A stretch of DNA of 64,000 nucleotides from Nemertoderma westbladi. Taxonomy: Eukaryota > Animalia > Xenacoelomorpha. Below are positions 36,932-64,000 of this stretch, in pieces. The notes beneath the pieces are model-generated. The model searched no databases. It had not been told where the DNA came from and worked only from the letters and a program-made list of their open reading frames with translations. Position 1 is the first letter of the stretch. The number at the start of each line of letters is the position of its first letter. Where the stretch lies: positions 79,829 through 143,828 of the forward strand of contig JAUCBJ010008708.1 of assembly GCA_032718475.1 (NCBI GenBank). The letters run 5' to 3'. The translations under genes were made by a program, and so were the position numbers.

Positions 36932-37623
36932 CTAGAGGAAGCACAAACAGAGGTTAGATGTGAGGAGACTTAGAGTTTGTCGGCTTTTGGCTCAACTCTG
37001 CTCTAAACCCCAACCCATTTTGCCTAATGACTTCGGGTTCGCGTGATTTCGCACTGGCCCCTAATCCAAAAAATTGTGCCGATAAAAAACGAATTCCGGG
37101 TAAACTAGCCGCGAGTCTAAAATACTCACCTTTTAATTTCCCAAACTACATTTCCCAAGAAAATAATGCAGTCGAGAATTAATTGGTCAAAATAATAGTA
37201 GACACGACTACGTAGAACAAGACCGATTTTCTTTTCCAGAAAAAATTTTATCGGTAGGCTCGCAAGCCTTCCATCCGCTCTTGTCCTCCCCAATTTTAAT
37301 TTTATCTAGCTGTATTCTAGAATTTGCTTTCACTGGAGAATCGTTTTTCTTAAATTTAAATCCAACTAAATGGATTTGTCTAATAATTTTTGAAAATTGT
37401 CTCACTTGTGGGTTCCAAGTGGAATTCCATTCCTACTGTACACACAATCCCGCTCCTATGTGATACATAAGGGTACTACCCTCCATGTTCACGTATAAAG
37501 ACAATGGAATTCCACCGCTGTCTCTATCTACAGTGAAGAGGATTACAAATGCACGTACAGTAATACAAATACAAATAACTAAAATACAGTAGGTCTATGT
37601 GGCGGCCAACAAAGGTCCCACAT

Positions 37624-38079
37624 CTATTTACTAATATTGGGTGGAGATTTGTAGTCTCCCGTCTCGTTTCTAGTCTCCTCAAGGAGTACGAGACGTTGTA
37701 CAGGCCTATCTACGGTACGTCCGTCGATAGTCCGTACAGTAACTGTTCTCACTATACCAGATGTAGGGTGCGTGGTCAAAATGACTCCAGTCAGCCAAAA
37801 CCGTATTTTCAGATTAGCTTCAGCCAATAAAACATGGTCACCACGTCTTAAACATCGGGTATTTAGATACCAGGAAGTTCTGGTTGAAATAGAGGGCAAA
37901 TAATTTTTCTGCCATATTTCCCAGAATTTATTTGCAAGCAATTGAGTGATTTTCCAAGCCTTGTTGCCGTATCCGTCACTATCAACGGGTACCGAAATGG
38001 GCAACAGTGTCGTCGGCGCCTGCATAAGCAGGTGCGCTGGTGTCAAGGCAAACTGTACGTCGTTATTGTCTGGGATCAT
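37624..38079 (-). pseudogene. Detached C-terminal part of the element C integrase
   Basis: ALTPAHLLMQ...FWEIWQKNYL...DRPVQRLVLLEETRNETGDY aligns with the end of ORF 54150..62477. Confidence 0.85.
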
Positions 38080-38085
38080 GGTGTT

Positions 38086-41000: not shown

Positions 41001-44000
41001 GAATGGTATCTCTCATAATATTTAATGACCGTTTTTCCTGTTCTGACATAGCGGTCTCGTAACTACCGGGTTCTGCTGAGTCCTGTTCCAACCATTGTAT
41101 GGTCCGTTCAGTCAGCAGTCGGTCAAGCGCTGCTTGCACTGCGCCATGGTCCTCGTCCACGTCTTCGTCCGCTGCGGTGGCTAGTGTCAAGGTGTCTGGT
41201 AGGCTCGCAAGCCTTCCGGTGTCACTAGTCGGCGTCGAATTGTCGTGCGGCGGTTTGACAACCTCTTGATCTATCGGTAGGCTCGCAAGCCTTCCAAGAT
41301 CAACGACCGGTGTCGAAGCCTGGTGGGTGGGGTCAATGACCTTCGGATTTTTCGGTAGGCTCGCAAGCCTTCCAAAATCCTCGTTCATCGAGTCATCCAC
41401 GGCAACAACCCTCAGGTCTTCGGTAGTCAATACAACCTGGTCTACTGCAAGTAGTTGTAAGTCAGAGGTCCGTATGGTCGTGTCCAGATCGGTTACGTCA
41501 GTATCGGTGGCGTCTGCGTTAGTGACGCAAGTCTGTCGTAGTGCCGTCCGTACAATTGGACCACGGGAGTGTGAAGGAGAATTATCTATCGTGTTAGTCA
41601 ATAAACTACACGTGCTCAAAACGTCGTCCTCCTGGTCACTTACCTCTAGTGAACGTATTGGTGCTCTAGTATACCAACCTATGGGAGTTCTACATGCGTA
41701 GGGGTTGCCCGCTGTAATAACAGATGGGCGTGTCTCCCATACCTGATGTAAGTTAAACTGGTCTGTCCCAATTAACATCGCAATGGAACGATAATTGACA
41801 GGACATTCCGGTATTCCAAGGTGTCGAAAATACTTACGATCTTCCGGAGATTGCTCTGGCACAGGGCCGAGCAAGTTACTAAAGTCCTTCGTAGCTGCAA
41901 AGGTCAAATTTCTTACCGGAAGTAATGAGCGCTCCTCCTTGCTGTGTTCCGTTTTGGAAAGAAGAGTGTCTAAAGTTAGTTTTACTCTCGTCACAGGAAT
42001 CGCTCTCTTACCATGCATGCTGCTTACAGTATACTGAGCAGTCTTACCTTGACTCAAGTCCGTAACTACGTCGGCTACTTGTTCGTCGACATAGCTATGC
42101 GATGACGCAGAGTCTAAGATGGCGTATATACGCTTGCTCCCTCGGGTTCCGGTAATCTTTATAGGAATCACGCTAAACCCTTTCAATTGGTTCTGTGTGA
42201 GGAGCGTTATCGAAGGCTGTTCCTCACCTGCATGCACGTAGAAAGTGTCGTCTTCCTCCTCGTCCTCGTCCGATGATCCTGACTGATCCATACAGTCGGT
42301 ATAAAAGGTACGGATCTCGCGCGGCGCACGCTCCTTATAAAGCGCGTCGCATCTAGCCGCTTTATCGGGATGCTCTCGTCGAAAGCGTCTGGTCGGAGTA
42401 TGACTGGTTGTGTGAAGCAACGCGTCATGGTTACGTCCACACAGAGAACATGTATCATCGCTCGGGCAATCCTTCCGGACGTGTCCTGGCTTCATACATC
42501 TCCAACAGGAATCTAGAGATCGGATTTGGAGTCTCCTTTCCTCGATCCCTAACTCTTTAAAAGCGCGACATCCACGTAGTTTATGTCCGCTATGGTTTCT
42601 GCCGTTCCGCTCGCAGTATGAGCATCCCACAAAGTCCGCCGGCAACTGTTGTCGTGGCTGCGTGGTGCCGATAGGCGTCAGAACTTTAGAAGTCTCAGTA
42701 GGGGTGGCGTAAGTAACGGCTTTCGCGTTCGTCGGAAACGGTTTAGTCCGATTCGGCGCAGAAACAGTTATCCCTTCCGCCGCGATATGGTGATCGGTAT
42801 AGTTCGATCGAGTCTCGATCACGGCCTCCCGTGAAATAAGTTGATAGACATCGGTGAGTTTTAATAACCCTCCGGCCTCTTCGCGTTGGTACTCGATGCG
42901 TCGCCATTCTCGTCGTAGTCGATGATGAAGTCGACCGATTATTCGAATGAGAACCGTCGGTGCGTTAGCGTACTCGAGTTGTCCAATGGACCGTAAAGTC
43001 CCTATAGCGTTCTTTATTTCGTCCGCGAGTCGTAAAAGGTCGATCGGTCTCGAAATGTTGCCTCCTCTGCAGAGGTCTTCAATGATGGATTTAGCCATGG
43101 CGACATTACCGCCGTAAATCGAATACAAACGGTCGTACGCCAATTCAAAGGCATCGGGAACACCAATAAAGGTTTCCGCTAATCGTTTCGGCTCACCAGA
43201 CAGAACTTGGAGCAAGTAATTAAACTTCTCCGTCGAGGTGAAAGCACACTTAGCGATCTGGGACTCTACGTAGTCTACCAGTGTGCGCCAGTGTTTCGCG
43301 TTGCCAGAGAATTTCGGCAGTTGCTGTGCCGGTAATCCGTGTCTAGCCGCGAATTTCGCAATCTCGTTAACTAAGTCCAACTGTCCGCGTCCCTGTTCGG
43401 TGGCGTCGTCCAGTCGCTTCCTTCCGCGCGTTGTTCGTCGGTAGGAATTATTAACGGGATCTTCTTCTCGATGTGTCGGAGTCCGTCTAGTCTCCTGTTC
43501 TCTCCTCGGTGGTCGATGTTGTCTAGGTTGTTCCAACTCCACGCTGGTTCGTGATCGATCCGACGGTTGCGCTTCGAGTCGCTCTTCGAGTTGAGCTAGT
43601 CGGTCCGTTACAGGTCGCATTATTTCGGCGAGTCTGTTGGTGCTGATCGCTTCCGCAGGTTGCAACGTGGGTTTCTGTTGGGGTGTTTCTCGTGGAGGAT
43701 TATCAATATAGGGGTTCGTCGATCGTTCCTCCCGTTTGTAATCCGCTGCCGCTGCCGCTCCAGTACGGAATATTTCCCGTTCCGTCGACTCCGAGTCACT
43801 GGATGAATCGCTGTCGTCCGGATAAGGTGGTTGGCGGGTTCGCGTCCGGCGTATTATTCTTGGTCGAGTTCGTCGTGGTCTGGGATCTACGGCTCCTCGT
43901 TGTTCGGTAGGCTCGCAAGCCTTCCACGAAGTCGTAGGTCTCGTTAAACATTGGGTGAGAGGTCTAGTAAAAACATCTGAGTTAAGTTCTACTGTAGGTT

Positions 44001-45732: not shown

Positions 45733-46688
45733 GTCTTATTATATACGTCGAGTACGGGTAATAAAATGTCAGTGTCTGAATGTTGAAGTGTCAAACTTAC
45801 CTTGGTATATATAGTACATATATACCCTAACCGGTACAAATAAATCAACAAGTCAGAATGTCGAAATGTCAAAATGTCGAAATGTACAAATGTCAAACTT
45901 ACCTTGATATATATATATATCATATATATACCCTAACCGGTACAAATAAAACTAACAAGGTATATAATAAAATAAGTAGTAATCTAGCCTACCGGCTAAA
46001 TTTGTACGAATAAGTGAGATAACGGTATACGTTAACAAAATATAGATCAACAAGTAAACAATAGGCCAAACAGCAACGTCTAACGGGAAAATAAGTACCA
46101 ACAACACTACTAATAGACAGTGAAACCCACAAATTTTGAGTACTACTGTGCTTTCTTAAGTTTGAACGACGCGAGTCGTAAAACTTACGTTCCTTTGATC
46201 TTCCAGTCGTACAAATTCCCAAATACAAACCGGACGTGGCTCTTTCCGTTTTTCGGCGGCGCGGACGAATTTATTGTCTCCCAAACTTTGCGAAAAGCGG
46301 TCTAATCCTCGAAGCGGTCCAGAAATGAGTCCTTGAGTCCTGAAAAGGTCGAAGGTGAGAGTTTTACTTCTACGCTTACGAAAAATCTTCCTAGGTACCG
46401 ATACAAATTGGTCTTTAAACCCTATGTACCTTTTCAAGTACCGAAAAGTAACACCGCACACACACGGCGTAAAACAAAGTGCTACAAACTAACTGTTAGC
46501 TAGTCAAAGATTAAATACGAAAGTACTAGCTACCCTAAAAGCCTACTGAAGCAGGGGACGTTCTAAATTACTAAATTTACTAACCTTAGTTTTTAAATAT
46601 CTCCTACTTTCAATAGCTAACAGATCTAAACTATACTATACGCTACGGCGGAAATACTATATACTAATTTATATAAAATACTTCCTAC

Positions 46689-48951
46689 TGTAAGGGTCCA
46701 GTAGTATACCGCTTACCAGATCCTAGTAACGATGTATCTTACTATGAGACTCTAGTAATGTATACGGGCTTGTACAGTATCTGACAACAAATCCCAGTCC
46801 AGGATATCTAAACAAACAGATATAGTACACAAACGACTACTGGCGAGGAACAGAGCCTTGTATCTATTCTATGTACGTGAGCGGGTCGAATGCCTACGTA
46901 CTAGACAGAAGGATACCTGTCCTCTAACCGGTGAGGCAGATGTACAGTTACAGTAACAGACCAAACTCACGGGAAAACAATCCCCGCGCAGCGAATCCTA
47001 ACTATCACTGACAGTCCTAAATACAGTAACTTGCCGCGGTGTGATTTATATGGTTTATATACGAGCTAGTGGGTTAACAGACCTAGCGTAACAACACTGA
47101 CAGTCCTAAATCAGTCGAAAAGGGGTCGTACCTAAATGTAACAATAACTGATCCCCCTGTACGAAATCAGTCTAAAGGGTCAGGCCTAAATGTAACAATA
47201 CCGTTGTCCAGACAAACAACAGTTTAATAACGAAAGTGAAATACTCCTTATTTTGCCGCAACTAAATCAGATCCTAATTTTACAAATACAGATAATTTCC
47301 ACCTAACGTAATGTATAGTACGCTATAGCTAGTAGAACTTTAAGGGCAATATGTTTTAGGGCGTGTGTGTGTGGGTGTGTTACAAATAAAACAATTTCGT
47401 GTAATTCCTTTTACTAGGTTTTAGTGATTTTCTGACTAAATGATACCGTGCGCTAGCTACTAAAATAAACTAGTCGCGTTTGTAGAACTTTATACTCACG
47501 AATGACGTCAAAGCTCTCTCCTTCCTATCCACAACCCAATGGGCAACCACAGTGTTAGTAACTACACCCGTGATCGGCACTAATACCAGATTCTGGTTGT
47601 AAGATAAGAATAGGGGTTAATCGCTACCGTACGTTAGCTGATCTGGTATACTAATTTAATTCTAGAACTTTGTTGCTGCGGTAGTTAGCAGCAATACCTA
47701 TCAGTACGTGGCGAGGCGCGGTAGGATATTAATAAACCTCCCTAGGCCAAGCAGTGTGCCGGTAGCAGAAATGCTCCTTGCCTGATCAAATAGCTAACTC
47801 CAGACAGGGGGGGGGGGGGTACTAATGTACGTTCTACAAAGCGAACCGGTACCAAACAGTCAGTGCTACGACTCACTAAATTATGGAACATATGCTGTCC
47901 GTACCTAATATGTACTCGCGTACTGACGAATGGCAATAGTTCGCACCTGTAGGAAGTACAGGTTAACCCAGGGATTCGTAGGACTTGACAAAGGGGGGGT
48001 GTCTGGATATAATTATTTGATCCTAAATTTGCGGCGTCCAGTACGGTGTCACGCTTACCCTGATCTATAGGTCTTACGGCGGGCAAGGGCGTCGAACAAA
48101 GTCTTACCTTCTCACAAAGCGGGCGCTGCATAGCAAGTGGAGTATTTCGAAGGGCAAAGGGGGTGCGCGGTCAATCCAATGTGGGCGCTAGCGTGTTGTG
48201 GACATCTCTTCCCTGCGTTGCTTACGGCCTAACGATCTAGGCTGCCATCTCCCTGGTGTTCGGCTGTCCCGAAGTCGGACCAAAAGAAAACATGTCAGGA
48301 AATTGCAGTATATTTACAGTTTTACAAAAGGATTTATCAAATAAAGTTTTAACAAGAAACCGAATTAACTAATTTTACAAGAATAAACTATAAGGTGGAG
48401 AAAAGGGGTAACGAAGTATATATTGATAACCGAAGGCAAACCGGCCTTTTATACTAGAAATTGCACATGGAAACTAAACAGAATTTTCCACAGCTTCACC
48501 ATTGAGCAATGAAGTGCTTCGTGCTCTATGATTGGCCCAGCTCATCGTTCAACGCAGTCCGGCCCTTACACTAATCTGGGACATGGAATCCTAACAGAAT
48601 TTTCCACTGCCTCACATTTGAGCAATAAGATAATTTATGCCCTATGATTGGCCTGGCTCATCATTCGCTACGCTGTACGCTTCTCATTGGCCTACCAATT
48701 AGCACCACACGAAAATAAATGGCCCCAAAATACAAATTTCCCGACTGGGATTCGAACTCGTAACCTACGTAATGTAACCAACGCCTTAACCATCTGACCA
48801 CTACGCCACGAGAGTACCTAAGGGTTTTATGTGTACAAATATGAATAGGCATATTACATTACTGTAACTTAATCAAAATACGTCGGATTTTCAAAAGTTT
48901 TTATGTTAAAGTTAAACTACAAATGCTATCTTATAGTGAAATAATTCATCA
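46689..48951 (-). repeat. 5' LTR of element C (2263 bp)
   Basis: TGATGAAT...CCCTTACA in element orientation. Duplicated CCAAT modules at 48465-48670 and TATAAAA at 48453-48447. Confidence 0.95.
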
Positions 48952-50400: not shown

Positions 50401-50661
50401 AAAATGCATAATATTTATTACATTTACCTTTTATCAGATAAACTAAATTACAAAATACATTTTTACTGAGATGTCACTGCACGGAAACTATATTAAACGT
50501 TATTGAAAAATTGCAAACAACAACAAAATATCTACTATATTGCAAAGTTTAAATGTGTACATAAGGTAGGGAAGCACCATCCTCCAGACCAGCAAGCACA
50601 TCGCCATACAGAGCGAGAGGACCTATAGCCTTTTTGTTACGGTATATGGCGCTGTATCCAT

Positions 50662-50760
50662 ATTATTAGTCATCATGCAGTATGCAATATTAGTCCGTTA
50701 TGCAGTATGCAATATTAGTCCGTTATACTGTATGTAATATTAGTCCGTTGTGCAGCATGA
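50662..50760 (+). repeat. 25-bp tandem repeat (~4 copies) in the presumed U3 of element D
   Basis: aatattagtccgttatgcagtatgc units. Confidence 0.8.
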
Positions 50761-53700
50761 TATTTTAGATAAGGCATAATAACGCAGTGGTATTTAGATA
50801 GGGAAATCGAAACACCCATATATTTGAATCCATCCATTTTGTATAGTATGTAGCCCTACCTACGTAATTTTGTATTAGGTTATATGTAGATAGTTCCAGG
50901 GTAAGTTTATTCGGACCCTGGATTCCGTGCTTGCTGATATTAGTTTTAGTAGGGCTAGCATATAGGGACGCTGTCCTGGCCATTCAGCAGCCAGAGACGT
51001 GAACCATTACCATATATGGTAATAATTCGAGGAAGGGGAGCAAATAGGGCTACAATCCGGCCTCCTTATTGGACTAGCTGCTTCCAGGTTGGTCTAGTGC
51101 TAGCACGGACTGGAGAGCCAATAAGAAAGCGATTGAGTCACCCTATTGCATCACCCCATCCGGATCACCTATAAATTGGCGGTGTGCCGGTAGAGCCTCA
51201 CTCTCATCACATGACACCTAGCCCTAGCACCTGTCTTACTGTTTTCTTGATACTTGTATTTTTCTGCAATTTGCTGATTTGATTAATTTCTTGGAATGAT
51301 TTGCTAGTGCGATTACTCTTGCTTGTGTTTCTCAATTAATTCCTGTCGATTACTGCTAATTACAACTGAACTATGATTTCTACCTTTTGATTAATGGTTC
51401 TATGTGATTCTTTTCTGCGCAATAATCCTAAGGGATTCCTGAGACTGTCAGACTTTGTGATTTGCATGCGCCGCTACGGTAGCTATTAGCATAATGGAGG
51501 GCTAAGGCGCCAGTGGGCGGTGGGCACATCGGGGGGTTGAGCGACTAAGGGAGAGCAGAGGATTCAAAGGCAGGCAACGCTGGCGGGGGTCAACGTTGCG
51601 GTCGGGCAACTTGCGTGCAACGGGCAGACCTATCGCCGGTACAGTAATTAGGGGGCTGATGATCCAGGTTTCGTCTCTATTTAGTATTAGGGGGCAGGAA
51701 TCAGGTTAGTTAGGAGTCCCATATGTACCCGGGAGAGGCCTGCACGTGTTACAGCGTATTAGAGCGTACAACGTTAAATGTAGAGTACGAATAGTGAGTC
51801 GCATAATTGTGGACTATACAGTAGTTAACTGCATAATTGCGAACTGTAATTTCTGACGCTGATTGGGGTGTTATTGAAGTGTGCCTATGATTATGAATGT
51901 TTAGGTAGGCGCCCCCCTTTCTTTGATTGATTTCTATTTCTTAGTTACAATAATTGGTTACTGATTAGGTCAAAGTAATACGGCAAATTTAGGCTATTAC
52001 TAGCGAAACTTGTTGCGTAATAAATTAGAATTACGTATTCTGGAACTCTTAGTAATTAGTACGCTGTTAAATATTTGTGACTGTAATTAATTAGTAAAAA
52101 TTAAGAATTAGTACGCAGCATAGCGGAGAGTAGCTAAAGTAATAATTCGAGTACTGTAAACTATTCACGCTGAGCGGTTATTTGCATTAGCGGGCAATCA
52201 GCTAGATTGTACTATTCGGTACGCACGATACGCTAGTAATTTGCTGGTCTAAAGCCAGCTGCAGGCGATTTTAGACCCGGAGTGATGTTATTTACTTAGG
52301 AACAGATACTGTACCGTTTTGATATTTAAATATTCTCGCATTCACACATTACGTTAGGGAACCTCCAGTATTCGCGATTAGAAAGACGTAGGTAATAGCG
52401 TGCTTTAATAGTGATAAAATTAGGCGTAAGAATACTCTGAGTGCAAGGCCTCTCGCACTCGTCTTAAGTAAGCTTAGGGAGCCGACTCGGGTTTATTGTT
52501 TTGGTTATTCCCGCGTGGCTCATAGATTCGAACAGTTAGCTCTCTATCGAGCGATCGGTAGAGAAAGGAACAAGCGATTTTGCAGGAGTTGTGTAAATTT
52601 AGTAAATATATTAGCGTACGGCAGATTAGCGCCATCTAACGATAAGTAGCGGTTTTGTATTTAGCAACCCTTACAATTTAGTAATATCACGCTCCTGATC
52701 CCCTTTACTTAACAGTAGAGCAGTCTTTGTGTCTTATTCTGTTATTGGTTAGGCGAGAGCTCATTACAGTCATTAGGTTGGCAGAGAGGTATACGGGTAT
52801 TTGTCTGTTCAACAGTTCTGCTGTTAGTATAGAGGTCGCGGTTGTTTATCAGTAACACGTGCTATTGCTTTGCTGTACTGCGTACAGTAAGGCAGATAGA
52901 GTATTCTTAGGCTGTTAGCTTAGATTATTGTTACTTTAGATTACTGATACTTCGTATCAGTAACACGTGTATTTATTGGCTGTTGCTTGCAGCAGTCGAT
53001 AGTGTATTCTTAGGCTGATTAGTAGTATCATAGTATTAGGCAATAAATTAGAGCACGTGATCGTCTGCTGTAGGCTATAGGCTAGCGTACGGTAAGACAT
53101 TGAGTATATTTCTTTAGGTTGTTAGTTTAGATTACTGTATTCACTGGCTGCGTACAATAGTACAGTAGTACATTAGGCTGATTGCTGTTACTGCGTACGG
53201 TAGAAGGGACATTTGTTTTGCCGTACCACATATACAGTATCATTAGGCTGTTAGGTTGGTGTACTGTTTTACTTACTGAACTGCATACGGTGGATGTACG
53301 GTAGTGCGTTTTGCTAATTGCGAATACAGCAGTTCCTTAGGCCTTAGGGCAAATTGTAAGTAGTAAGTTTTTTGAAATTTTTAGCTAGGTTTGCGAGAAT
53401 TCAGTTTCGGTCAAAATTATTTTGTAAAATTCTAGAGTTTTTGTACCGGTATGTTAGGTAACCGCTTAGTTATTTTATACCATCTGGAGATACATGGCAA
53501 GACGGAACTTCTGAGTTTGGGGTTCGTGTGGGTCTGCGGGTTCGGTTTGCAATCAGCGGAGAGCCTGAATCTTTGGACGCGGACGTGGAATCTCACAGCA
53601 AACAAGGTTAGTTGTTCTGTTGGCACCAATGTGTTTGTGGAAGCAGTAAAAAATTATCGGTTGTTTAACTGCGAAGCTGAACTCAGTTTATTAGTTAGGA

Positions 53701-54149
53701 TATTTAGGTTTAGCCGGCCATGGTTTTTTGAATCGCTCAAGTTAGAGAGAGAGTTAGAGAGAGTCGCAACCCGAAGATGTAGCCACGCGCTAGTGGATAC
53801 ATATAATATTTGAAACTAAAATTACGTTGATTAGAGCTATATATAAAATTAGAAATATTCGGGCGGCAAGTTTATTTTGAATATTTTGTATTAGATTCAA
53901 AGTTATTTTGTGCTATACCGGTATTTAATGCTATATAGTAGCTATATAATAATATTTTTGTTTAAATATTGTGTTAGTATTTGCTATAACTATATACCCC
54001 ATTAAATTCACAATATTGCATTGCGAATTTATTTGACATTTGGACCAACTGATTATTAGACAAATAATTTGACCGTGTTTCGGTTAAATTATAATTATAT
54101 CTCGAACCTTTGCGAGATATTTTGCCGGAAGGCAAACATTATTTAGACT

Positions 54150-57100
54150 ATGAGTGTCTCAGACAAAGAGGCACTAGAGGACAGCTACGAGACGGCGGCT
54201 GGACCGCCGACTGACGATAGCGTCAATATTACTGTTGACGACAATGCCGACTATGACGACGCAGCGAGCGATGCTGACGTAAGTGAACAGGAGGACGAGA
54301 CAGTGACTAGTGAGGAAGAACAACAACCTCAAGTAATAGTATTAGGATCCCCTACCGCTACTGTAAGGAAGGATTGTACAGCAACCCGACCAGAGGTGAG
54401 TGATAAGGAGGGTAGTGTAGCAGAAGCGAGAGCCCGGAGCCCGGTTTCCAGACCTGTGGGTATGGTAAGTGCCGTGGTCCCAGCGGCTGTAAGGAGTACC
54501 CGTAGTTCCCGAAATAATCCTTCAAGTCCACCGAGCGTAAGTCAGGTAAGTGATAGAGAGTTCGACACTGCGATGAAGAAGAAACTTCGCGCGCATGCCG
54601 GACATATAACCCGGACGGCGGACAAGGTAAGGAAAATGTTAGCTGACTCAGCGAACATCGGGAGGGTAGAGTTAGCAGAGATTAGAAGAGGATATAACTC
54701 AGCGTTATTCAAGCAGACGGAGGAGCTTGCAGTCCTAGCGAAGAAGGCAGTAGAGTCTCAGTCGAGCGACGTGGCGACGAGGATTTACGACAGGGTTTTA
54801 GCAGCCTTGTTGGAGCACCGCGAGTTATCGGAGCGATTCCGACGAGTTAGGACGGAGAACTGGCTGCTATGGGCATCACAAACGCAGGCGACTCAGGTGA
54901 GTGACGCAAAGTTAAGAGACTTAGTGGAGCAAGAAGAGATCCAAGATAAAGAGGAGCGCCGTTATCAAAGGGAAGTTACTAGCTGGTTGATGCAGAATGG
55001 AGTGGTGGTACCGGGTCAGGTGCTACCAACCACGGAGAACATCCAACAGAGGACGTTGACTCCACCTGATGACGCATCTAGAGACAGCGGCGATTCCCAG
55101 GTTAGTCACGCGCGAGGTAAGGTAATATGTGCTAGATCCCTTGTTTCGCACAACTCGGCGGAGGAGAGAAGACGCCGACTGGACGAACAGCAGGCGGAAG
55201 TTTTGCGTGCATCGGAAGCACGGAAGGAAGCCGAGCGGGAACGGGAACGAACACGTAAGTTAGACGCGAAGTTGCGCGAACTGGAAGATAAAGGTAAGCG
55301 TGAGCGAGCGGAACGCGAGCAGAAGGAACGCGAACTTCAACTTGAACGCGAACGCAAGGAACGCGAACTCGAACTTGAACGCGAGCAGAAGGAACGCGAA
55401 CTCCAGCTCGAACGCGAACAGAAGAAACGTGAACTCGAACTTGAACGCGAACGTAAGGAACGCGAACTCGAGATCGAAAAGGAGCGACAAGCGTTGTATG
55501 AAGAAAGGGCGCGTGTGGAAGAAGAGGGCGCAGCGAGACGAGCGAGGGAAGAAGAAGAACGTAAACTGGCGCAGTTGGAAAGTGCGAGATTAAGTTTAGA
55601 GAGCGAAGAACGGACTAGAAAGGCAAATGAAATCGCAGAGAAGGGGATGCGAATGATCGAAGAATGTGGGGCGAGTGTAGGGACTGAGTTGCGAGAACTG
55701 TTCGCACTGCAGAAGGCCGAACAGGAAGCGAGAACTCCGACCATACGCGAGTCGACGACGACCAGAATTCCTATACCCGGTCCAGCTATTACGAGTACAC
55801 GGATTGCTAAACCGTTTTCTACATATCGCACGCCAGTTGGTATTAGTGCTTCACCTATCGCGCAGGATCTACGTCATCGGAACACTGCACCACTATACAC
55901 CGAACGAGAGAATGAAGAGTTTAGAGAAACTCCGACGGGACGAGTACTTGGCGAACCGAACCCGCGGGTTTGGAATACGCGGACGGAGCGCCGACCCAGT
56001 TCGACGGAGAACTTCCGGGTTAAACCGGAAGAGGGATCATATGAGAGACAGCGGATTACTCAGATAGAGCCGACTATACAACAGAACCCTAGCCAGGAAT
56101 TTATTACGAGGGATGAGTTGAGTGCTAGTTTAGCGCAAGCTATATCGCCACACATCCAACCTATAACGGACATGCTTAGCAACCTACGGTTAAAGGAAGC
56201 AGCCCAGGTAAGAAGTAATTCTAATCCTAGCAGACCTGAGTTAGACAAAGTCCAGCCTAGTCAACGAGTACGCATATCGGAGGAAACTATACCACATAGA
56301 CCTCAGGTAAGGACGCCTGTCCCGAACATCTCTAATCCCAACTTCGAAAACTCAGCCGAGAAATTTATAGAGGAGGCTTGGATCAGGGCCTCGGCGCGCA
56401 AACCATCGCGAGCGTTAAGGACTGACACCGAGTCGAGCGATGAAGAGGAAGAAATGAGACGTCAGAAGTCCCGAAACTATAAGGAAAGAAGGACCGACGC
56501 GGAGCAGGTAAGTTGGAACCACCGGGAAAGGACCAGACTTAACAACCCTGCGGAACTAAACCATTTGTTAACCCGGAGCGACGCAACCCTTAGGGACATA
56601 GGTAAGTTTGCTGCTAGGCAAGGACTGCCGACGCAACAACCCCAGAAGTTTATGGGCAACCATAAGCACTGGAGGACCTTTAAAACCTATGTCGACGAGC
56701 AGCTAACCAACAGCACCTTTACTCCCAACGAGAAGTTCAACTATTTGCTTCAGATGCTCCATCGAGAACCTAGAGCCATTGCTGATAACTTCGTCGGCAA
56801 CGAGAGAGCATTTGAGTTAGCGATGAAGACACTTAGTGACATCTACGGGAATAAAACCAAGATGGCGCAGTCGATAGTAGAAGACTTGGGTAAGGGCGGA
56901 AGGATTACAACTCCGTTAGAGCTGTTGAACTTAGCGAACGCTATTTCGAACGCATTGGACATCTTGAGGACGGTGAATCTACCTCATCATGGTGATCACG
57001 CCGAAGTCTTAAAGAGCGTAATTAGACGTCTAAACATGCGTTACCGACAGAAATGGCGCAAATTAGAGAATAAGTTGGAGGGCCAAGGTAAAGTATTGAC

Positions 57101-60100
57101 ACTTCAGCATATTCATGACATGATAGCCACAGACGCAGTAGCACAGATGAAATCAAACTTCTCAGAAGAGAATATGAGGGAGTCTAAACCTGTTACCGGT
57201 AAGTCTATGGTAAGTTTTGACGATGACAGGACCACTGTGACATTTAACTCAGTAGACAGATATAATTCGAATACCCCAGCCTTTAGATCAGACTCGCGAG
57301 TATGGTCAGGTGAGCGGTTAGATAGACCTAGGTTAAAGCAACAGGAGTTGCCGGATGGATTTGTAGGTTGCCAATACTGTTTACTAAAGGAGGTAAGATC
57401 TGACGACCATAAGTTAGATAGTTGCAGACGGTTCAAAGAATTAAATTCGGAACAGAGAAGAGTTCAAGTGCGGACGTTGGACACCTGTTGGGCATGTCTT
57501 GCGCCAGGTCATGTACGGCGGCAGTGCCCGAACAGCAAGGACGGATGCATGGAATGCGGCAGACTTCATCACAAGTTGCTACATGCGGATTTCCACACCC
57601 CAACGGACCGTTACTTACAGCGAAATCCTCACAGGAAGGGGAGCAAAGAACCCATATCGATAAGGAGGAATACGTACACTGGCATCCAGGACGATGGTTA
57701 TCAACCAGGTTCGTCGGATGAGGATGGCGAGTCGAGCGCAAGAGAGGTGACCTGCCAAGGTTTCACCGCGGATAGTTCATCAACCAGCGCGCGGACGTAT
57801 TTATCATCGGCCACGTCGGAAATATTTAGCGTGATTCCGGTGAAACTCACTGGAGATAAGGGATCGAAGCGAATATATGTGATGTTGGACACTGCGTCCA
57901 CATTATCTTATATCGACGAGGAAGTGGCGAGAGCCATTTCTAGCTTCCAGGACGCCGAGGAGATCCAAATAGAGTTGAAGTCTATGCACGGGGTAGGAGA
58001 CCTCAAGGGACACAGAATTTCGGTAGAACTAGATTCCCTACTTCCGAGAGACCAACACACTCGACAAGAACGGAAAGCTTTGCCATTGGACGGATTTAAG
58101 TGTCTAGCTATGAAGGGATTCAGCAGGCAGTTAGGTAAGGTGCCGCCGATGAGTCCCATAGCACAGGAGTATTTTGACAAGCTCAGGATACCCAGACACC
58201 AGGTAGGTTATAGGAATGTTTCTATGTTGATTGGTGCAGAACAGCTGATCGCACACCAGATATGGGAAACGAGACCAGCTGAGCCGCATGTCAATGGACC
58301 ACATACCCATAGGACCATACTAGGTTGGTATACACGAGTACCCATGTCTTATGAGTTTACAGGTGGCGACAAGCCAATGAACAGATACGACGAATTACAG
58401 CCTATAATTCAACCACCGTTAGTAGAACCACCAGACATAGACGAGTTTAGGAGAACCTGTATTGACCACTATAGTGACTTTAGCGAGTCGGACGAGGAGT
58501 TGATTCCCGATAATGTTAGGTTGTCGGAACCACTTCACAATGACCGGACAGATAGTGAACCCGAGGACTACTGTTATCAGACCCGTGGGTCTGGTTCAGC
58601 GGCCCACGCTACCTATTTGACTAACGTTTTGACTTATACAGACATAGTGGAGGGTCAAGTGGCTAAATATCGAGACCTAGACATTTTCCAATACAGTGAG
58701 GAGGAGCTACAGAAGGAATTGATACGCCAGGACCTCGAGACAGGAGCCAGAACTGTCGAATGGCTGGATAGGGACGCAATGGAACCCGGTGGATATGACC
58801 TAGCCATGTCTACTGATGAGAAACGGTCGTTGGAGATGATGGAAGACACCATACGTCTGCTACCGACTGGACATTTTGAAGTTGGAATGTTGTGGCGTCG
58901 ACAACCACCTAAGTTGGAGAACAACTACAGCTTAGCCTTGAAAAGATTAAACGGAGTAAGGGCTCGGTTGTTGAAGAATCCGGACATTAGGGAGAAGTAT
59001 TGCGCCCAGATCAACAACTATTTCGCCAAGGGATTTGCTGGGAAGGTAGAGGACCCTGACTTAGTAACAGACCAGACTTATTACCTTCCACACCACTATG
59101 TGACTCACCCTGACAAACCTGACAAAGTCCGAGTAGTCAACGACTGCGCAGCAGTCTATAGAGGTATGTCCCTGAATTCAGAGTTGATGGATGGTCCCAA
59201 CCTGAATAACTATTTGATAGGAATACTGTTGCGTTTTAGACAGCGGCGATTCGCATTTACTTGTGACATCGAGGCGATGTTCCACCAGGTAAGAGCCTGT
59301 AAGGCAGACCAGGATAGCCTTCGCTTTCTCTGGTACGAGAATGAAGACTTATCCGGCCCAGTGGTTACATACCAAATGTACGTAAGGATATTTGGCGCCC
59401 GCGATAGTCCGAATGGCACGCTGTTTGTTCTAAAGAAAACGGCAACAGCCCAGATTGGTAAGTACCCAGTAGAAGTAATCGAGTCCATCTTGAGAAACTT
59501 CTATATGGACGACGGATTGGTGTCCAAGGACACAGCGGAACAAGCCATAGAAGTGGCTCACGGCCTGCAAGAGTGCTTGGCTACAGGGGGATTTCCTCTG
59601 ACCAAGTTCACTACGAATTCGGAGGCCCTATTAGAGTCGTTCCCGGTAAAAGATCGCGGGAGCGGAGACATAGAATTGGGGGTAGAACCAATCCCCATGG
59701 CGCGAGTACTGGGACTCGCTTGGAACCCGAACTCAGATAAGTTCCAGGTAAGAGTTAGATTTGAGCCCAGTAGCCCAGACAAAATTTTGACTAAGAGGAT
59801 TTGCTTATCGACTTTAAGTAGACTATTTGACCCGATGAACTTTATCAGTCCGGTTATATTACAGGCACGAGCGTGCATGAGGAAAATTTGGTTGTCCGAC
59901 TTAGAGTGGGACGAACCAATATCTCCTATACATGCAAAGCAGTGGAGAGAGTGGGAAGCCGAGTTGCATCTATTGAAAAATATAGATGTACCCCGTTCCT
60001 ACTTTCCGAATCAGCTGGTATTTCCAGCTGATCTCGAACTGCATTTGTTTAGTGACGCAAGTGACACCGGCTTTGGTATGGTAGCCTACCTTCGCCGAGA

Positions 60101-62477
60101 GGTAAGTCAGGACAAGTTTGAGACGGCCTTTGTGACTTCTAGATCAAAGACAATGCCGGTCAAATACATGACTGTCCCTCGTGCAGAGTTACAGGCGGCT
60201 GTAGTTTCAGTCGAGGTGAGTAAGCAAATAACTGAGGAGTTAGACACGACATTGACCTTATTCTATTGGACGGACGCATCCTTGGTGTTAGTATACATTG
60301 CGGCCGACAATATTGCACTAAAGACATTTGTGGCCAATAGACGCGCTCAGATCGTTGACTTTTCGACGAAGGAACAATGGAGACATTGTCCGGGAGTGTT
60401 GAACCCGGCCGACATAACTTCGAGAGGTGCAATGCCGGCGGAATTCTGTCAGGAAGAGTCGCAGGAGTTTTGGTTGCATGGACCTGATTTTCTAACAAGG
60501 ACACAGGAACATTGGCCAGAGCGACTAAAGATAGTGACCAATCCGATGCCTGAAGATGCAGAAGTCAAAGTGGAGAAAGTCTCTAAGTCGAAGTCTAAAG
60601 CCAAACTTAAGTCATTGGAGCGGCCTGAAGAGTCATTGGAGCGGCCTGAAGAGTCATTGGAGCGGCCCGGAGACCTGTCAGACCAACAGACTTACGTGAC
60701 TACTAGGTCAGGAAGGGTAAGTTACGACATAAAACCACCCTTACAGACTGGACGACAGTCACAGTTGGTAAGTGACGGACAGAAAATGACCGACACAATG
60801 GAGTCTTTGGTTTCCAAACCTGCGGGTTTGGATTCGAAACTTCCATTAACTAGCGGACAACCGTCGCTGGCATTAGAGTCATGCAGTATTTATGACAAAT
60901 TACTAAATTCGTCTGCCTCTTGGCTGACAATTTGTAAAAGAACTGCGTGGTTAAGCCGATACGTTTCGTACCTTTGTTTAAAACATTCGAAACATTTGAG
61001 AGAACCATTGAGCACCAATAGTGAGCGAATTCGGAAATTGAAACAACCTCTGACAGAGGATGAGATTGATCAAGCGGAATTAAAGCATTTGAAGCATTAC
61101 CAAATGTGTGCCTTCCCAAAAGAATTCCATCTATTATCGGCTCAACGACTAGTTCTCTATAAACCCCTTAGAAAATGGAGTCCATTAATCCATAAGGGTT
61201 TAATTTGTCATAGATCGAGAATCCAGACTGTCGACATAAACTCACAGTTTCGATTCCCAGTGATAATCCCTAGTCACCCAATAGAATTGCAAAGAGCGAT
61301 TCTATGGGATATACACAAGAGGTTGCATCACGCGGGAAAGTTACACTGTCTGTCGGCAGCGAGACAGCGATTCATTCTATTGCAGCCAAGCAGGGCAGTA
61401 GGCACTATGTACGACGCCTGTCTGGTTTGCAAGAGGGTGAACGCCAGAGTATTGGAACAGGAGATGGCTGAACTCCCGGAAGCGAGAGTGCAGGCATATG
61501 ACCCACCCTTTACGAATACAGGGGTGGATTGTTTTGGTCCGATTGAAGCAAAGAGTGGACGGCTGACCCACAAACGATGGGGTCTGCTACTGACATGTAT
61601 GGCGAGTAGAGCCATACACATTGAGCGTGTGGCAGACATGTCGACCAAATCTCTGCTCCTGGCCTTGAAGAGATTTATGGCCAGGAGAGGACTAGTAAAG
61701 GCGTTTTACTCTGATAAGGGTACAAACTTTGTTGGAGGGAATAGCGAGTTGAACGCGGCTCATAAAGCAGCACAGAATAAGGAAATTTCTGCAGCACTTT
61801 TGCCGCAAAGAGTAGAGTGGAGATTCAATACTCCAGAAAGTCCTTGGAGAGGAGGAAGTTGGGAGCGTTTAGTTCGCTCTGTAAAACAGGCCATTGCCAA
61901 AACATTGCCTGTGAACAAACAACTTACCGACGACGAACTGGTCACAGCTTTCATTGAAATCGAGCATACCCTAAACTCGAGGCCGATAGCTATGTTGCCA
62001 GACGGTGTTGCATTAACGCCGAATCATTTGCTAATGCAGAGTCCAGCATTTCTTGTGCCGGCATCAGAACCCATTAGTGCCGACCTATATAGTCGTAAAA
62101 GCTGGAAAGTAACACAGTTTGTGGCGTACACATTCTGGGAATATTGGCGGGAATACTATCTTCCCACCATATCCACCAGAACAAAGTGGTACAAAACGGT
62201 TCGGAGTCTCCAAAGGGGAGATTACGTGTTGATAACCGAACCCATTGTCAAGAGAAAGTATTGGGAGACGGGAGTGATCTTGCACACACACCCAGACGTG
62301 CAAAACATAGTGCGCACAGTCACTGTGAAAATTAGGTGCAAGTGTCCGCACCCAAAAAAGTGTAAAACTAATGGTTTACACACCTTGGACCGACCGGTCC
62401 AAGATATTGTGTTATTAGAGGAGACACGTATCGAGACGGGAGATTATAATTTGTCTCCTGCCTCAAAACAGAGTTAG
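54150..62477 (+). CDS. gag-pol: Element D full Gag-PR-RT-RH-IN polyprotein
   Basis: E/R coiled coil, Gag core, three knuckles, MLDTAS, FYMDDG, LFSDAS, HHCC finger (HKRLHH...CLVC), catalytic GVDCFG / SDKGTNF / WERLV. Confidence 0.97.
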   Translation: MSVSDKEALEDSYETAAGPPTDDSVNITVDDNADYDDAASDADVSEQEDETVTSEEEQQPQVIVLGSPTATVRKDCTATRPEVSDKEGSVAEARARSPVSRPVGMVSAVVPAAVRSTRSSRNNPSSPPSVSQVSDREFDTAMKKKLRAHAGHITRTADKVRKMLADSANIGRVELAEIRRGYNSALFKQTEELAVLAKKAVESQSSDVATRIYDRVLAALLEHRELSERFRRVRTENWLLWASQTQATQVSDAKLRDLVEQEEIQDKEERRYQREVTSWLMQNGVVVPGQVLPTTENIQQRTLTPPDDASRDSGDSQVSHARGKVICARSLVSHNSAEERRRRLDEQQAEVLRASEARKEAERERERTRKLDAKLRELEDKGKRERAEREQKERELQLERERKERELELEREQKERELQLEREQKKRELELERERKERELEIEKERQALYEERARVEEEGAARRAREEEERKLAQLESARLSLESEERTRKANEIAEKGMRMIEECGASVGTELRELFALQKAEQEARTPTIRESTTTRIPIPGPAITSTRIAKPFSTYRTPVGISASPIAQDLRHRNTAPLYTERENEEFRETPTGRVLGEPNPRVWNTRTERRPSSTENFRVKPEEGSYERQRITQIEPTIQQNPSQEFITRDELSASLAQAISPHIQPITDMLSNLRLKEAAQVRSNSNPSRPELDKVQPSQRVRISEETIPHRPQVRTPVPNISNPNFENSAEKFIEEAWIRASARKPSRALRTDTESSDEEEEMRRQKSRNYKERRTDAEQVSWNHRERTRLNNPAELNHLLTRSDATLRDIGKFAARQGLPTQQPQKFMGNHKHWRTFKTYVDEQLTNSTFTPNEKFNYLLQMLHREPRAIADNFVGNERAFELAMKTLSDIYGNKTKMAQSIVEDLGKGGRITTPLELLNLANAISNALDILRTVNLPHHGDHAEVLKSVIRRLNMRYRQKWRKLENKLEGQGKVLTLQHIHDMIATDAVAQMKSNFSEENMRESKPVTGKSMVSFDDDRTTVTFNSVDRYNSNTPAFRSDSRVWSGERLDRPRLKQQELPDGFVGCQYCLLKEVRSDDHKLDSCRRFKELNSEQRRVQVRTLDTCWACLAPGHVRRQCPNSKDGCMECGRLHHKLLHADFHTPTDRYLQRNPHRKGSKEPISIRRNTYTGIQDDGYQPGSSDEDGESSAREVTCQGFTADSSSTSARTYLSSATSEIFSVIPVKLTGDKGSKRIYVMLDTASTLSYIDEEVARAISSFQDAEEIQIELKSMHGVGDLKGHRISVELDSLLPRDQHTRQERKALPLDGFKCLAMKGFSRQLGKVPPMSPIAQEYFDKLRIPRHQVGYRNVSMLIGAEQLIAHQIWETRPAEPHVNGPHTHRTILGWYTRVPMSYEFTGGDKPMNRYDELQPIIQPPLVEPPDIDEFRRTCIDHYSDFSESDEELIPDNVRLSEPLHNDRTDSEPEDYCYQTRGSGSAAHATYLTNVLTYTDIVEGQVAKYRDLDIFQYSEEELQKELIRQDLETGARTVEWLDRDAMEPGGYDLAMSTDEKRSLEMMEDTIRLLPTGHFEVGMLWRRQPPKLENNYSLALKRLNGVRARLLKNPDIREKYCAQINNYFAKGFAGKVEDPDLVTDQTYYLPHHYVTHPDKPDKVRVVNDCAAVYRGMSLNSELMDGPNLNNYLIGILLRFRQRRFAFTCDIEAMFHQVRACKADQDSLRFLWYENEDLSGPVVTYQMYVRIFGARDSPNGTLFVLKKTATAQIGKYPVEVIESILRNFYMDDGLVSKDTAEQAIEVAHGLQECLATGGFPLTKFTTNSEALLESFPVKDRGSGDIELGVEPIPMARVLGLAWNPNSDKFQVRVRFEPSSPDKILTKRICLSTLSRLFDPMNFISPVILQARACMRKIWLSDLEWDEPISPIHAKQWREWEAELHLLKNIDVPRSYFPNQLVFPADLELHLFSDASDTGFGMVAYLRREVSQDKFETAFVTSRSKTMPVKYMTVPRAELQAAVVSVEVSKQITEELDTTLTLFYWTDASLVLVYIAADNIALKTFVANRRAQIVDFSTKEQWRHCPGVLNPADITSRGAMPAEFCQEESQEFWLHGPDFLTRTQEHWPERLKIVTNPMPEDAEVKVEKVSKSKSKAKLKSLERPEESLERPEESLERPGDLSDQQTYVTTRSGRVSYDIKPPLQTGRQSQLVSDGQKMTDTMESLVSKPAGLDSKLPLTSGQPSLALESCSIYDKLLNSSASWLTICKRTAWLSRYVSYLCLKHSKHLREPLSTNSERIRKLKQPLTEDEIDQAELKHLKHYQMCAFPKEFHLLSAQRLVLYKPLRKWSPLIHKGLICHRSRIQTVDINSQFRFPVIIPSHPIELQRAILWDIHKRLHHAGKLHCLSAARQRFILLQPSRAVGTMYDACLVCKRVNARVLEQEMAELPEARVQAYDPPFTNTGVDCFGPIEAKSGRLTHKRWGLLLTCMASRAIHIERVADMSTKSLLLALKRFMARRGLVKAFYSDKGTNFVGGNSELNAAHKAAQNKEISAALLPQRVEWRFNTPESPWRGGSWERLVRSVKQAIAKTLPVNKQLTDDELVTAFIEIEHTLNSRPIAMLPDGVALTPNHLLMQSPAFLVPASEPISADLYSRKSWKVTQFVAYTFWEYWREYYLPTISTRTKWYKTVRSLQRGDYVLITEPIVKRKYWETGVILHTHPDVQNIVRTVTVKIRCKCPHPKKCKTNGLHTLDRPVQDIVLLEETRIETGDYNLSPASKQS

Positions 62478-63232
62478 TGTTGGACGCAACTCACTTCGTA
62501 TGCATTCCTCGTATGCAAATACAAGGAAATGCATAGGAGCGGGGTTGTGGTGATTTGCGTTGAGTTTTGTCTAGTGGGTATCAAAACAAAATTTTATTTT
62601 CAAAATTTTGGAAAATTAGAAAATTTTTAAAAATTAGAAGTGAACCCAAGACAATTCCAGACGCTGTGTATAGACGCGTTTTAGAATTCGTCTATAGATA
62701 AACAGTAATTTGAAAAGTCGTGAAGCCTGGAAAATAGCATTTAGAAACCATGGTGACGGCTATATTACGTAGGAGTGTAAATTGAGTTTAGCAACTTCCA
62801 CAGATTGGTGCCAACAGTGCAACTAAGGTGCTAAAGGTTAGTAGCACCAGAGGCGTGCACGGACCCCACTCAGTAGTTTGCAGGATGTGTGATGTTCGAT
62901 TATCAAACCTGTGGGTTTGGTATAGTCGAGTATTGTGGCTATGATCCTTTCTAACTACTGTAGTTTAGTACGAGTAATGGGAGTAGTTTGGGCATCAAAA
63001 AGTGAGTTGGTCACGGCCAGTTTATCTCCAAAGTTTTGCGCTATGCATGGGAATAGGTTAGAGGATAGTTAGTTAGGAAGAGACGGGATCTAGAGAGTCG
63101 AACCTGAACTGCTGGAAGGCGGGGGGGTTCGGGAGGTCTGTCCTTCGGCGACATCTAACTGATTTACCCACAGTGTAGTTGGTTACGTAACGGCACTTAT
63201 TGGGATATATATATGTATATACGCGTAACATA

Positions 63233-64000
63233 ATGGAGAGGGATATTAGAGCGCAGCCGCGCAGAGGATTTACTGCCAGAGAGGAGGCGGAGCTACCATT
63301 CGCGCGACCAGGATGTAAAGACTCTAACGTTTACTATCATGGGCGGTCCGTGATGGAGCTGAACGGAAAGTATAAACCAAGTTATGATAAAGAATTACGG
63401 AGAGAAAGAATGAGAGCGTTGGGGGACCGGATGGAAGTCTTGCGGAAAGAGTATCGCACGCGGTATCCCTACGACTTTGCTTTGGACGTGTGCGACATTA
63501 GCGCAGATCCGGACGAGGAAATCGCACGACTATACCATATGAATATGTATTTACGACACGAGGAGCCTCTACCTGCAGTCCGAGACCAGTTCGACGGAAT
63601 GCATCTGTATCGGAGGACTCGAGGCGAGGATCAGGAGACGCCGAAGGTCTTCAGCGTATACAAGCTCTTCTACAAGTGTGGTGAATGCATGAATAAACAG
63701 GACGTGGCGATTCCCGACCGACTAGACGAGCAACATCCGGAACCGATATTAACGCGATGTCCAGCTCACCAATTCCTTAGATATAACGAGGGAGGTTATC
63801 CGATGAGCAACCCGATGATCAGTATCGACTTCAGCGGAAAGCGACCTCCGAGACCCATTACGCCGACCGTTACGACATTAGATCCGTATACGGAGATTAA
63901 ACCCTGTTCGACACCCAGTTTGATAGAGACGGCAGCGGCCATTTCGCTATACCGAGCCTACAAGGATCTAGAGGCGCGGCGCGAAGCGGCGCGGGACTCG
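63233..64000 (+). CDS. Element D 3' accessory protein (at least 256 aa, open at the window edge), unknown family
   Basis: Translated by hand: MERDIRAQPRRG...YKCGEC...HPEPILTRCPAHQFLRYNEGG..., with no stop. Acceptor CATCTAACTGATTTACCCACAG at 63152-63173. Absent from the ORF track, presumably because it is unterminated. Confidence 0.85.
   Translation, partial: MERDIRAQPRRGFTAREEAELPFARPGCKDSNVYYHGRSVMELNGKYKPSYDKELRRERMRALGDRMEVLRKEYRTRYPYDFALDVCDISADPDEEIARLYHMNMYLRHEEPLPAVRDQFDGMHLYRRTRGEDQETPKVFSVYKLFYKCGECMNKQDVAIPDRLDEQHPEPILTRCPAHQFLRYNEGGYPMSNPMISIDFSGKRPPRPITPTVTTLDPYTEIKPCSTPSLIETAAAISLYRAYKDLEARREAARDS

Follow-up and report, generated by a model that had tools for sequence, protein, structure and literature searches.

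A conserved third reading frame, donor-motif excess and dispersed hairpins in two BEL/Pao retrotransposons of Nemertoderma westbladi: a candidate RNA-binding regulator

The window, the whole 64,000-nt stretch of Nemertoderma westbladi DNA that was analysed, is animal-type DNA with nested retroelements. Besides the BEL/Pao elements C and D considered here, it contains elements A and B and one gypsy-like element. Element D lies on the forward strand, and contains a 5' LTR and leader (50635..54149) followed by an uninterrupted gag-pol of 2775 codons (54150..62477) with the Pfam domains Peptidase_A17, DUF1759, Integrase_H2C2 and DUF5641. One read contig departs from the sequence at 50635, and the 3' LTR lies outside the window. 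Element C lies on the reverse strand, with a 5' LTR (46689..48951), a leader carrying consensus donors at 45902 and 45800, and a gag-pol (37624..45735) that is broken at 38085/38086 and lacks the integrase core. Its 3' LTR (33605..35873) is 2269 nt long, is preceded by a polypurine tract and is 99.5% identical to the 5' LTR, and the element is flanked by a 5-nt target duplication.

BEL/Pao-type domains in the order PR-RT-RH-IN, the gag-pol arrangement of the Belpaoviridae, were found in both elements, and C shows in addition the flanking LTRs, target duplication and polypurine tract of that family. A primer-binding site for tRNA-Arg or tRNA-Gly is another of the family's criteria; beyond their 5' LTRs, B and C both continue with GTA, and ARAGORN returned nothing in the window. 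With 15,347 nt and 2,269-nt LTRs for C, and more than 13,366 nt for D, both elements are outside the usual size of Belpaoviridae (4.2-10 kb, with LTRs of 0.2-1.2 kb), a range that is descriptive rather than a strict criterion (PMC8742986). C and D share 57% identity over RT-RNase H, and each is 41-44% identical over this region to the top BEL/Pao database matches; those with a name are from cnidarians, echinoderms, hemichordates, shrimp and a mussel (both statements apply to the 120 best of 1488 matches). A quick tree with 32 rows placed C and D in one clade inside BEL/Pao on a long stem (SH-aLRT 100), and they appear from these comparisons to be sister elements. Their LTRs had been described in a first-pass annotation as largely unalignable, and blastn indeed gave no C-D LTR match. 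A purine-rich 18-nt block is common to D (62532..62549, forward) and C (37460-37443, reverse), with 17/18 positions identical (E 0.002), and is an internal copy of the polypurine-tract motif that precedes the 3' LTRs of B and C.

Downstream of pol, each element contains a third open reading frame, here called ORF3. The first-pass annotation had noticed in D a frame missing from the ORF track and homologous to the 3' ORF of C, and both observations hold. ORF3 of D (63233..64000, forward) shows 255 codons from ATG 63233 and is still open at the window end, and that of C (36582..36953, reverse) is 123 codons from stop to stop, with the first in-frame ATG at 36833. By blastp, two blocks were found to align (16/22 identical, E 1e-9; 17/52 identical, E 2e-7), and the score of the C-D alignment was reached by 0/2000 shuffles. 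The block around PEPIL is the sole non-self tblastx match in the window at E < 0.05 (E 2.9e-7). In contrast to these blocks, the N-terminal 47 residues show no alignment beyond chance (1059/2000 shuffles as high), and C has 76 residues fewer than D between the conserved blocks. The D protein consists of a helical basic/acidic block (about residues 48-99), a CxxC (149-152) and a PEPIL-CxxH block (167-188). The possible zinc site that had been pointed out in D is present, as C149-x2-C152 and C176-x2-H179; CxxH is common to C and D and CxxC is missing from C. Zinc binding by the ORF3 protein is a putative property, in effect a guess. Pieces of the 3' ORF of element B were compared with C and D and show no detectable homology (446-1633 of 2000 shuffles reached the score).

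The basic motif on which a regulatory role had originally been founded did not survive. The Arg-rich GRPRNRKARRK of C lies in another frame than the conserved ORF and past its stop at 36582, and the alternative C frames do not resemble the C-terminal part of the D protein (1153 and 624 of 2000 shuffles as high); in the present C copy, this motif is not part of the conserved ORF3 protein. The in-frame products, the 255 residues of D and the product of C, are free of Arg-rich motifs, basic runs and NLS patterns, with at most five K/R in any 12 residues of D and at most four in C. One loose NES-like match occurs in D (116-125), in a stretch missing from C, and none occurs in C.

Selection on ORF3 was assessed with read contigs from four public runs, placed on D only. 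Because 1440 and 743 contigs from two deep DNA runs cover the 961-nt ORF3 region, with a depth that is no measure of copy number, D ORF3 is a standard component of a family with many copies. Among the variants listed (40 of 47 places, 34 of them in the ORF), 27/34 were synonymous, against 10.6 expected from identical mutation types, and the remaining seven change a residue and none gives a stop. The resulting pN/pS of about 0.12 was reached in 0/20,000 simulations; a dN/dS near 1, which the first-pass annotation had named as refuting, was thus not seen. Again among the listed variants, the bias is present in all three segments of the frame (11/13, 7/8 and 9/13 synonymous) and at segregating sites alone (22/27). 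One antisense frame shows 22/34 synonymous variants, an expected shadow, with two stops gained. Upstream of the ATG, in 20% of the stretch, lie 10/12 of the listed indel places, several of which come from one divergent contig. Altogether, these data support ORF3 as a conserved, selected protein-coding accessory gene. An in-frame deletion removing residues 49-158 also occurs as DNA in the D family. A joint at 63378-63708 was considered as an intron and rejected, as its ends are AA..GG and it is present in DNA runs.

No described family was found for ORF3 in the protein families, proteins and structures searched. Searches with D ORF3 gave 0 usable relatives among 819 candidates, none in viral or metagenome contigs, and a tblastn search of 79 BEL/Pao control loci was likewise negative; searches at near or longer lengths, including one with the C+D alignment, gave none among 5.8 billion proteins. 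A single match among 1.84 billion representatives (E 1.8e-8), a 2195-aa FAZ1 repeat protein, was rejected as a relative because its score was summed over nine repeats of about 30% identity each. Other hits were taken as chance: Pfam Mac (E 0.13, with no other Pfam family), PDB sequences (E 0.26 or worse), one PHROGs match of unknown function to C ORF3 (E 0.003) and Atlas matches with scores of 0.85 or less. Two AlphaFold models had mean pLDDT values of 35.5 and 37.4 and were unusable. ORF3 thus appears to represent a protein family that is absent from the databases searched. In 21 of the 79 metagenome BEL/Pao loci, the end of pol and a flanking repeat are both visible; the sequence between them spans 45-919 nt and holds no more than 70 stop-free codons, so the closest relatives available do not as a rule carry an internal third ORF.

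Is ORF3 expressed from a spliced RNA? The first-pass annotation had proposed that both frames follow a shared branch point and a YAG acceptor. The sequence CATCTAAC followed by YAG does precede both ORFs, but the sharing of this 8-mer is not beyond chance, since 593/2000 shuffles share some 8-mer on the diagonal. In D, the predicted branch point and 3' splice site occupy 63152..63173 (forward), with a predicted first exon base at 63174, and in C they occupy 36932..36960 (reverse), with a predicted first exon base at 36931; the distance from pol stop to acceptor is 697 nt in D and 693 nt in C. The strict pattern of branch point and YAG has 18 distinct occurrences in 128 kb (both strands); that chance would place it no more than about 100 nt ahead of each of the two start codons is therefore unlikely, in what is a post hoc test. 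In D, the 59 nt between acceptor and ATG carry stops in the ORF3 frame and would therefore be 5' UTR, with ORF3 starting at its own ATG; in C, the reading frame is open across the predicted acceptor. Neither acceptor is followed by a strong donor (the top scores, with generic splice-site weights, are 5.4 and 4.0), fitting a terminal exon.

The donor that would be joined to these acceptors may lie in the leader or nearby. The best donor-like site of the D post-pol spacer (63002..63007, forward) would give a predicted 172-nt intron, and is equalled in 715/3000 shuffles; C has a strong local donor at 37129, equalled in 430/3000. Because these best spacer donors sit 170-200 nt upstream of the acceptors in both elements, a short local intron, in an RNA that starts internally, is no less possible than splicing from the leader to the acceptor. 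In the run guessed as RNA, the LTR, leader and flank of D are thinly covered and no joint was seen. Splicing of ORF3 RNA is, on these signals, a plausible prediction.

The gag-pol frames of both elements are rich in the donor motif GGTAAG. When the protein was kept fixed and synonymous codons were shuffled, 20 motifs were observed in D gag-pol (between 54464 and 60772) against 4.8 expected, nine in C against 1.6, and four in the gag of B against 0.7, and none of these counts was reached by 200 shuffles. GGTAAG ranks first in over-representation among the 4096 hexamers in both D and C gag-pol, and first (D) and third (C) when codon-boundary dinucleotides are kept. The wider motif GGTRAG occurs at 24 sites in D and 13 in C, none at a shared position, and antisense GGTAAG was found once in D against 1.4 expected and six times in C against 2.5. 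No GGTAAG was found in element A and the gypsy-like element of the window, where power is low. Across the long ORFs present in 49 of the BEL/Pao control loci, 17 copies were observed against 62 expected, and 41/49 ORFs have none. C and D thus keep a donor signal that their BEL/Pao relatives purge. One control locus, L046, is also enriched (7 against 1.8 expected), and has no ORF before its LTR.

In human cells, GGTAAG was reported to retain unspliced RNA in the nucleus and to be depleted from intronless mRNAs (PMC4380460 and PMC9074902, each in part), and to destabilise unspliced RNA (PMC4380460, in part). A kept donor signal would imply a need for active export, yet may simply protect a long transcript. 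Moreover, U1 sites alone do not demand ORF3, because B and L046 are enriched without ORF3 or hairpins. Enrichment of U1 sites in LTR elements was not described in the literature searched, a scope outside which most subscription papers lie.

The second feature of both elements is a family of dispersed hairpins with a YGYG loop. D contains six of 18 nt (54448..62920, forward; starts 54448, 55956, 57288, 58577, 60814 and 62903) and C eight of 20 nt (36342..45007, reverse; starts 45007, 43925, 41373, 41295, 41217, 38520, 37272 and 36361). The loop is common to both families, whereas the stems differ. Five of the D hairpins lie inside gag-pol against 0.27 expected and six of the C hairpins against 0.36 (0/500 shuffles), and the pattern matches were reached by 0/100 window shuffles. 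In both elements, they are located in gag, the PR-RT linker, the RH-IN linker and the post-pol spacer; one C hairpin lies downstream of the predicted acceptor and would remain in an ORF3 mRNA. Within gag-pol they occupy all three reading frames, and are therefore not peptide motifs. YGYG hairpins occur at 0.4 per 10 kb in the 79 control loci, against 7 and 8 here. The D-type and C-type patterns are missing from those loci, neither family was found in element A, B or the gypsy-like element of the window, and Rfam gave nothing over 33000-64000.

Several details suggest that the hairpins are likely to act at the RNA level. All 14 lie on the sense strand of their element, and the palindrome positions that depart from Watson-Crick pairing are G-U in 17 cases, G-A in two and A-C in none, in addition to a fixed A-A position in the C hairpins. 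Three pairs are changed on both sides, but the covariation does not reach significance (37-50 and 102 of 500 shuffles), with few and non-independent copies. Just outside the C stem, one position shows three C-A and four T-G combinations.

We propose that the ORF3 protein may be a soluble RNA-binding regulator that reads the hairpins and spares the donor-rich unspliced RNA from splicing or retention, a reading to which we give a probability of about 0.4. ORF3 would be translated, starting at its own ATG, from an RNA spliced to the acceptor at 63174 or 36931, and many U1-binding motifs would leave the full-length RNA prone to splicing or nuclear retention. The hairpins would function as RNA, with the ORF3 protein, rather than Gag or a host protein, as their ligand, and the outcome would be export or stabilisation of unspliced genomic RNA. 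The links that join ORF3, donor motifs and hairpins into such a mechanism are inferred. The Rev/Rec-like regulator suggested by the first-pass annotation is thereby upheld in part: its Arg-rich ground fell out of frame, and donor-site enrichment and dispersed hairpins give indirect support. Since C and D are sisters, the joint presence of hairpins and ORF3 counts as one co-occurrence, not two. Several observations speak against a regulator: the lack of any Arg-rich motif, basic run or NLS pattern in ORF3, the donor excess in B and L046 without ORF3, the shortness of ORF3 in C, in a copy without integrase core, and the existence of the deletion form of D.

In a first alternative, the hairpins would be packaging or dimerisation signals recognised by Gag or by another copy of the RNA, the U1 sites would protect a very long transcript from ending too early, and ORF3 would encode a soluble protein with an accessory task of its own, most probably that of counteracting silencing or defence by the host. 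In favour of this, the hairpins are all near-palindromes, self-complementary with G-U pairs, and are spaced at about 1-2.5 kb. The lengths of C and D exceed the family range (PMC8742986), and U1 binding is reported to suppress early cleavage (PMC9074902 and PMC12789967, in part), which would fit a guard for long transcripts. A separate role for ORF3 also fits the donor enrichment of elements without it, its fast divergence between sisters and the tolerance of large in-frame deletions. However, BEL/Pao elements of other hosts lack such hairpin families although they also package RNA, and family-specific stems with a shared loop fit a fast-evolving partner. We consider this account the main rival, somewhat less probable than the regulator reading.

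Alternatively, ORF3 might be a sequence-specific DNA-binding factor, with the palindromes as its DNA sites, acting in anti-silencing as VANC does or in transactivation as Tas does. Foamy-virus Tas is a transactivator. VANC of VANDAL transposons resembles ORF3 in being an element-encoded accessory protein paired with family-specific repeated motifs (PMC5735166, in part), and the possible zinc site of D and the loops, which are CGCG and C-to-T variants of this CpG-containing palindrome, would suit such a factor. VANC belongs to a DNA transposon and has DNA targets, often tandem repeats (PMC5735166, in part), whereas the C and D motifs are dispersed, lie mostly in coding sequence and show a strand bias as in RNA hairpins. 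The same orientation of 14/14 hairpins and the G-U compatibility of every loop change on the sense strand argue against DNA sites. Symmetric CpG decay should also give G-to-A changes in the loop, and none was found with stem-only patterns. A DNA-binding role is therefore improbable.

Could ORF3 instead be the N-terminal end of a divergent env, or of a small fusogen, with its anchor beyond 64000? Its position after pol and its predicted acceptor are as in env, the end of D ORF3 is outside the window, and BEL/Pao elements have acquired unrelated fusogens (PMC13524379 and PMC8742986, the former in part). The env-like ORFs of Tas, Cer7 and roo and the chuvirus-like glycoproteins are likewise third sense ORFs between pol and the 3' LTR (PMC8742986, PMC554778 and PMC13524379, the last two in part). 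In contrast to these, the visible D ORF3 contains no signal peptide or membrane helix, as had been noted at first (maximum 19-residue hydropathy 0.70), and no N-glycosylation site in its 255 residues. It is hydrophilic, with 42 K+R and 42 D+E (84/255 charged) and 17 Tyr. The C product after its Met also has no signal-like or membrane segment, and C ORF3 stops at 36582 with 709 nt left before the LTR. No match was found to viral glycoprotein families in Pfam, protein databases or PDB. Small fusogens of the sORF2/FAST-like type have one membrane helix followed by a basic stretch (PMC11952523, in part), unlike the in-frame ORF3 products, which have no membrane helix. The evidence thus supports a non-env ORF3 in its visible part, and an env origin has quite a low probability. 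Further papers bear on the rival readings (PMC2774666 and PMC2238898, in part).

A captured or chance frame without function for the element, to which the short C version and the deleted form circulating in the D family might point, is very improbable and largely refuted by a pN/pS of about 0.12 among listed variants, as low as the gag-pol control (0.29; 11/17 synonymous on 17 of 40 rows out of 721), by the opposite pattern in the other two sense frames (3/34 synonymous among the variants listed) and by the concentration of indels upstream of the ATG.

The regulator reading, if it holds, would bear on a step that is poorly known outside a few cases, the nuclear exit of intron-bearing full-length LTR-retrotransposon RNA; ICTV describes the replication of Belpaoviridae as a poorly understood process (PMC8742986). 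In C and D, a protein without known relatives and a short, well-delimited candidate target lie within one element, in two stem variants, so that binding, specificity and export are testable with small reporters. Should the regulator reading fail, the donor excess and the hairpins remain cis-features of retrotransposon RNA for which no description was found in the literature searched. For Belpaoviridae, gag, pol and env-like genes are the only ones listed in the ICTV profile (PMC8742986), and the parts covered of PMC3118150, PMC554778 and PMC13524379 agree with this list for BEL/Pao. No description of a non-env or Rev-like ORF in BEL/Pao was found in the literature listings searched, most subscription papers being outside their scope. 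A 1999 paper on C. elegans Cer elements reportedly mentioned putative accessory genes and an internal promoter in a BEL-like group; if so, non-env accessory ORFs in BEL/Pao have already been suggested.

What distinguishes ORF3 from the accessory proteins of other retroelements? Rev, Rex, Rec and Rem carry an arginine-rich RNA-binding/nuclear-localisation motif and a leucine-rich export signal, whereas the visible ORF3 has no Arg-rich motif and no homology to them, the tail of the D protein lying beyond the window. They are nevertheless alike in being spliced accessory genes 3' of pol (as predicted here for ORF3) and in pairing with a structured cis-element on unspliced RNA, for which the hairpins are candidates (PMC12789967, in part). 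Rev-type systems use one large response element, whereas C and D have many small hairpins and no env (PMC12789967, in part). The non-env ORF3s of bdelloid and plant LTR elements are likewise family-wide post-pol ORFs conserved across copies, and typically come from spliced messages (PMC5408684 and PMC7264820, in part). Those elements are Ty3/gypsy or copia, however, and C and D are BEL/Pao (PMC5408684 and PMC7264820, in part); in addition, the bdelloid proteins show matches to GDSL or DEDDy enzymes or have TM helices, whereas the present ORF3 matches nothing (PMC5408684, in part).

A layout like that of complex retroviruses, as the first-pass annotation had put it, is not unprecedented in LTR retrotransposons. 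The Rev-like reading is partly supported here, and CERV of the C. elegans element Cer1, a product of spliced RNA, is needed to export donor-bearing genomic RNA, the function now proposed for ORF3 (PMC10309623, in part). CERV resembles ORF3 as an LTR-retrotransposon accessory protein without a recognised RNA-binding motif, and its Cys-rich loop, a possible zinc finger, has a counterpart in the possible CxxC/CxxH zinc site of D (PMC10309623, in part). Unlike ORF3 of D, which follows pol and has no in-frame join through its acceptor, CERV has 517 aa and shares exons with gag, and dispersed hairpins are not described for Cer1 in the parts of the source covered, whereas C and D carry eight and six (PMC10309623, in part). 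In the database searches, ORF3 gave no match to CERV. Cer1 is a gypsy-type element. By sequence and motif, ORF3 appears to be a member of none of CERV, Rev, Rex and Rem. It is conceivable, though doubtful, that this BEL/Pao lineage independently evolved a U1-site-coated genome together with a zinc-binding family that reads six to eight family-specific hairpins, as a switch between spliced and exported RNA. If true, this would be an independent invention of Rev-like control, distributed along the RNA rather than held in a single response element.

In D, the plus-strand member of the two sister BEL/Pao elements C and D, ORF3 (63233 to >64000), the accessory ORF after pol, also exists as DNA in a shorter form carrying an in-frame internal deletion of 327 nt (63378-63708, plus strand). 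This deletion is spanned by one contig from the public sequencing run X4, and loose ends in runs X1 and X3 are compatible with it. The PEPIL-CxxH block (residues 167-188) is retained in the deleted form, and the same block is retained in ORF3 of C (36582-36953, minus strand). The stop codon of a six-codon upstream ORF (63213-63235, plus strand) overlaps the ORF3 start codon in D (TAATG), and the two may form a stop-restart arrangement. In C, the leader contains an ATG (45800-45819, minus strand) lying 19 nt upstream of the leader donor at 45800, in a phase that would join the ORF3 frame at the predicted acceptor (first exon base 36931), an agreement with a chance probability of about 1 in 3.

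The splice-donor motif GGTAAG, over-represented in gag-pol of C and D, is in excess in only one control BEL/Pao element, the metagenome locus L046 (7 occurrences versus 1.8 expected), an element without an ORF between pol and the terminal repeat.

C is itself nested inside a LINE-like RT gene (32552-33700 and 49016-49519, plus strand). Its RNase H-integrase linker contains an insert rich in Asp, Ser, Pro and Cys, encoded by tandem 12-nt repeats (38777-39157, minus strand). A tRNA-like stretch seen by eye in its LTR (~35660-35740, minus strand, with a copy in the 5' LTR) received no call from ARAGORN or Rfam.

The window also contains a gypsy-like element (27738-32322, plus strand) with 218-nt repeats, and tandem repeats with units of 45 nt (197-1174, within an open frame of 325 codons), 105 nt (24256-25590, within an open frame of 444 codons) and ~28 nt (26174-26971). 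Element B, the third BEL/Pao element, lacks RT and integrase, has LTRs (5599-6845 and 16391-17637) of 99.9% mutual identity, and is nested inside a further one, element A (3058-5685 and 17613-19664, minus strand).

The polypurine-tract motif is present a second time upstream of the 3' ORF in all three elements having such an ORF: B (~14172-14190, plus strand), C (37460-37443, minus strand) and D (62532-62549, plus strand). In C and D this second copy follows shortly after pol. Its possible roles are an extra plus-strand primer or the leftover of an older LTR border.

The 3' coding region of B (14848-16312, plus strand) is broken into 137, 108 and 251 stop-free codons. Knuckle-like Cys/His spacing is seen within it, and its C-terminal tail is rich in Lys/Arg (9 per 12 residues). 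No homology to ORF3 of C or D was detectable and Pfam returned no match. By composition, this region is a better candidate for a nuclear RNA-binding protein than the visible part of ORF3 in D.
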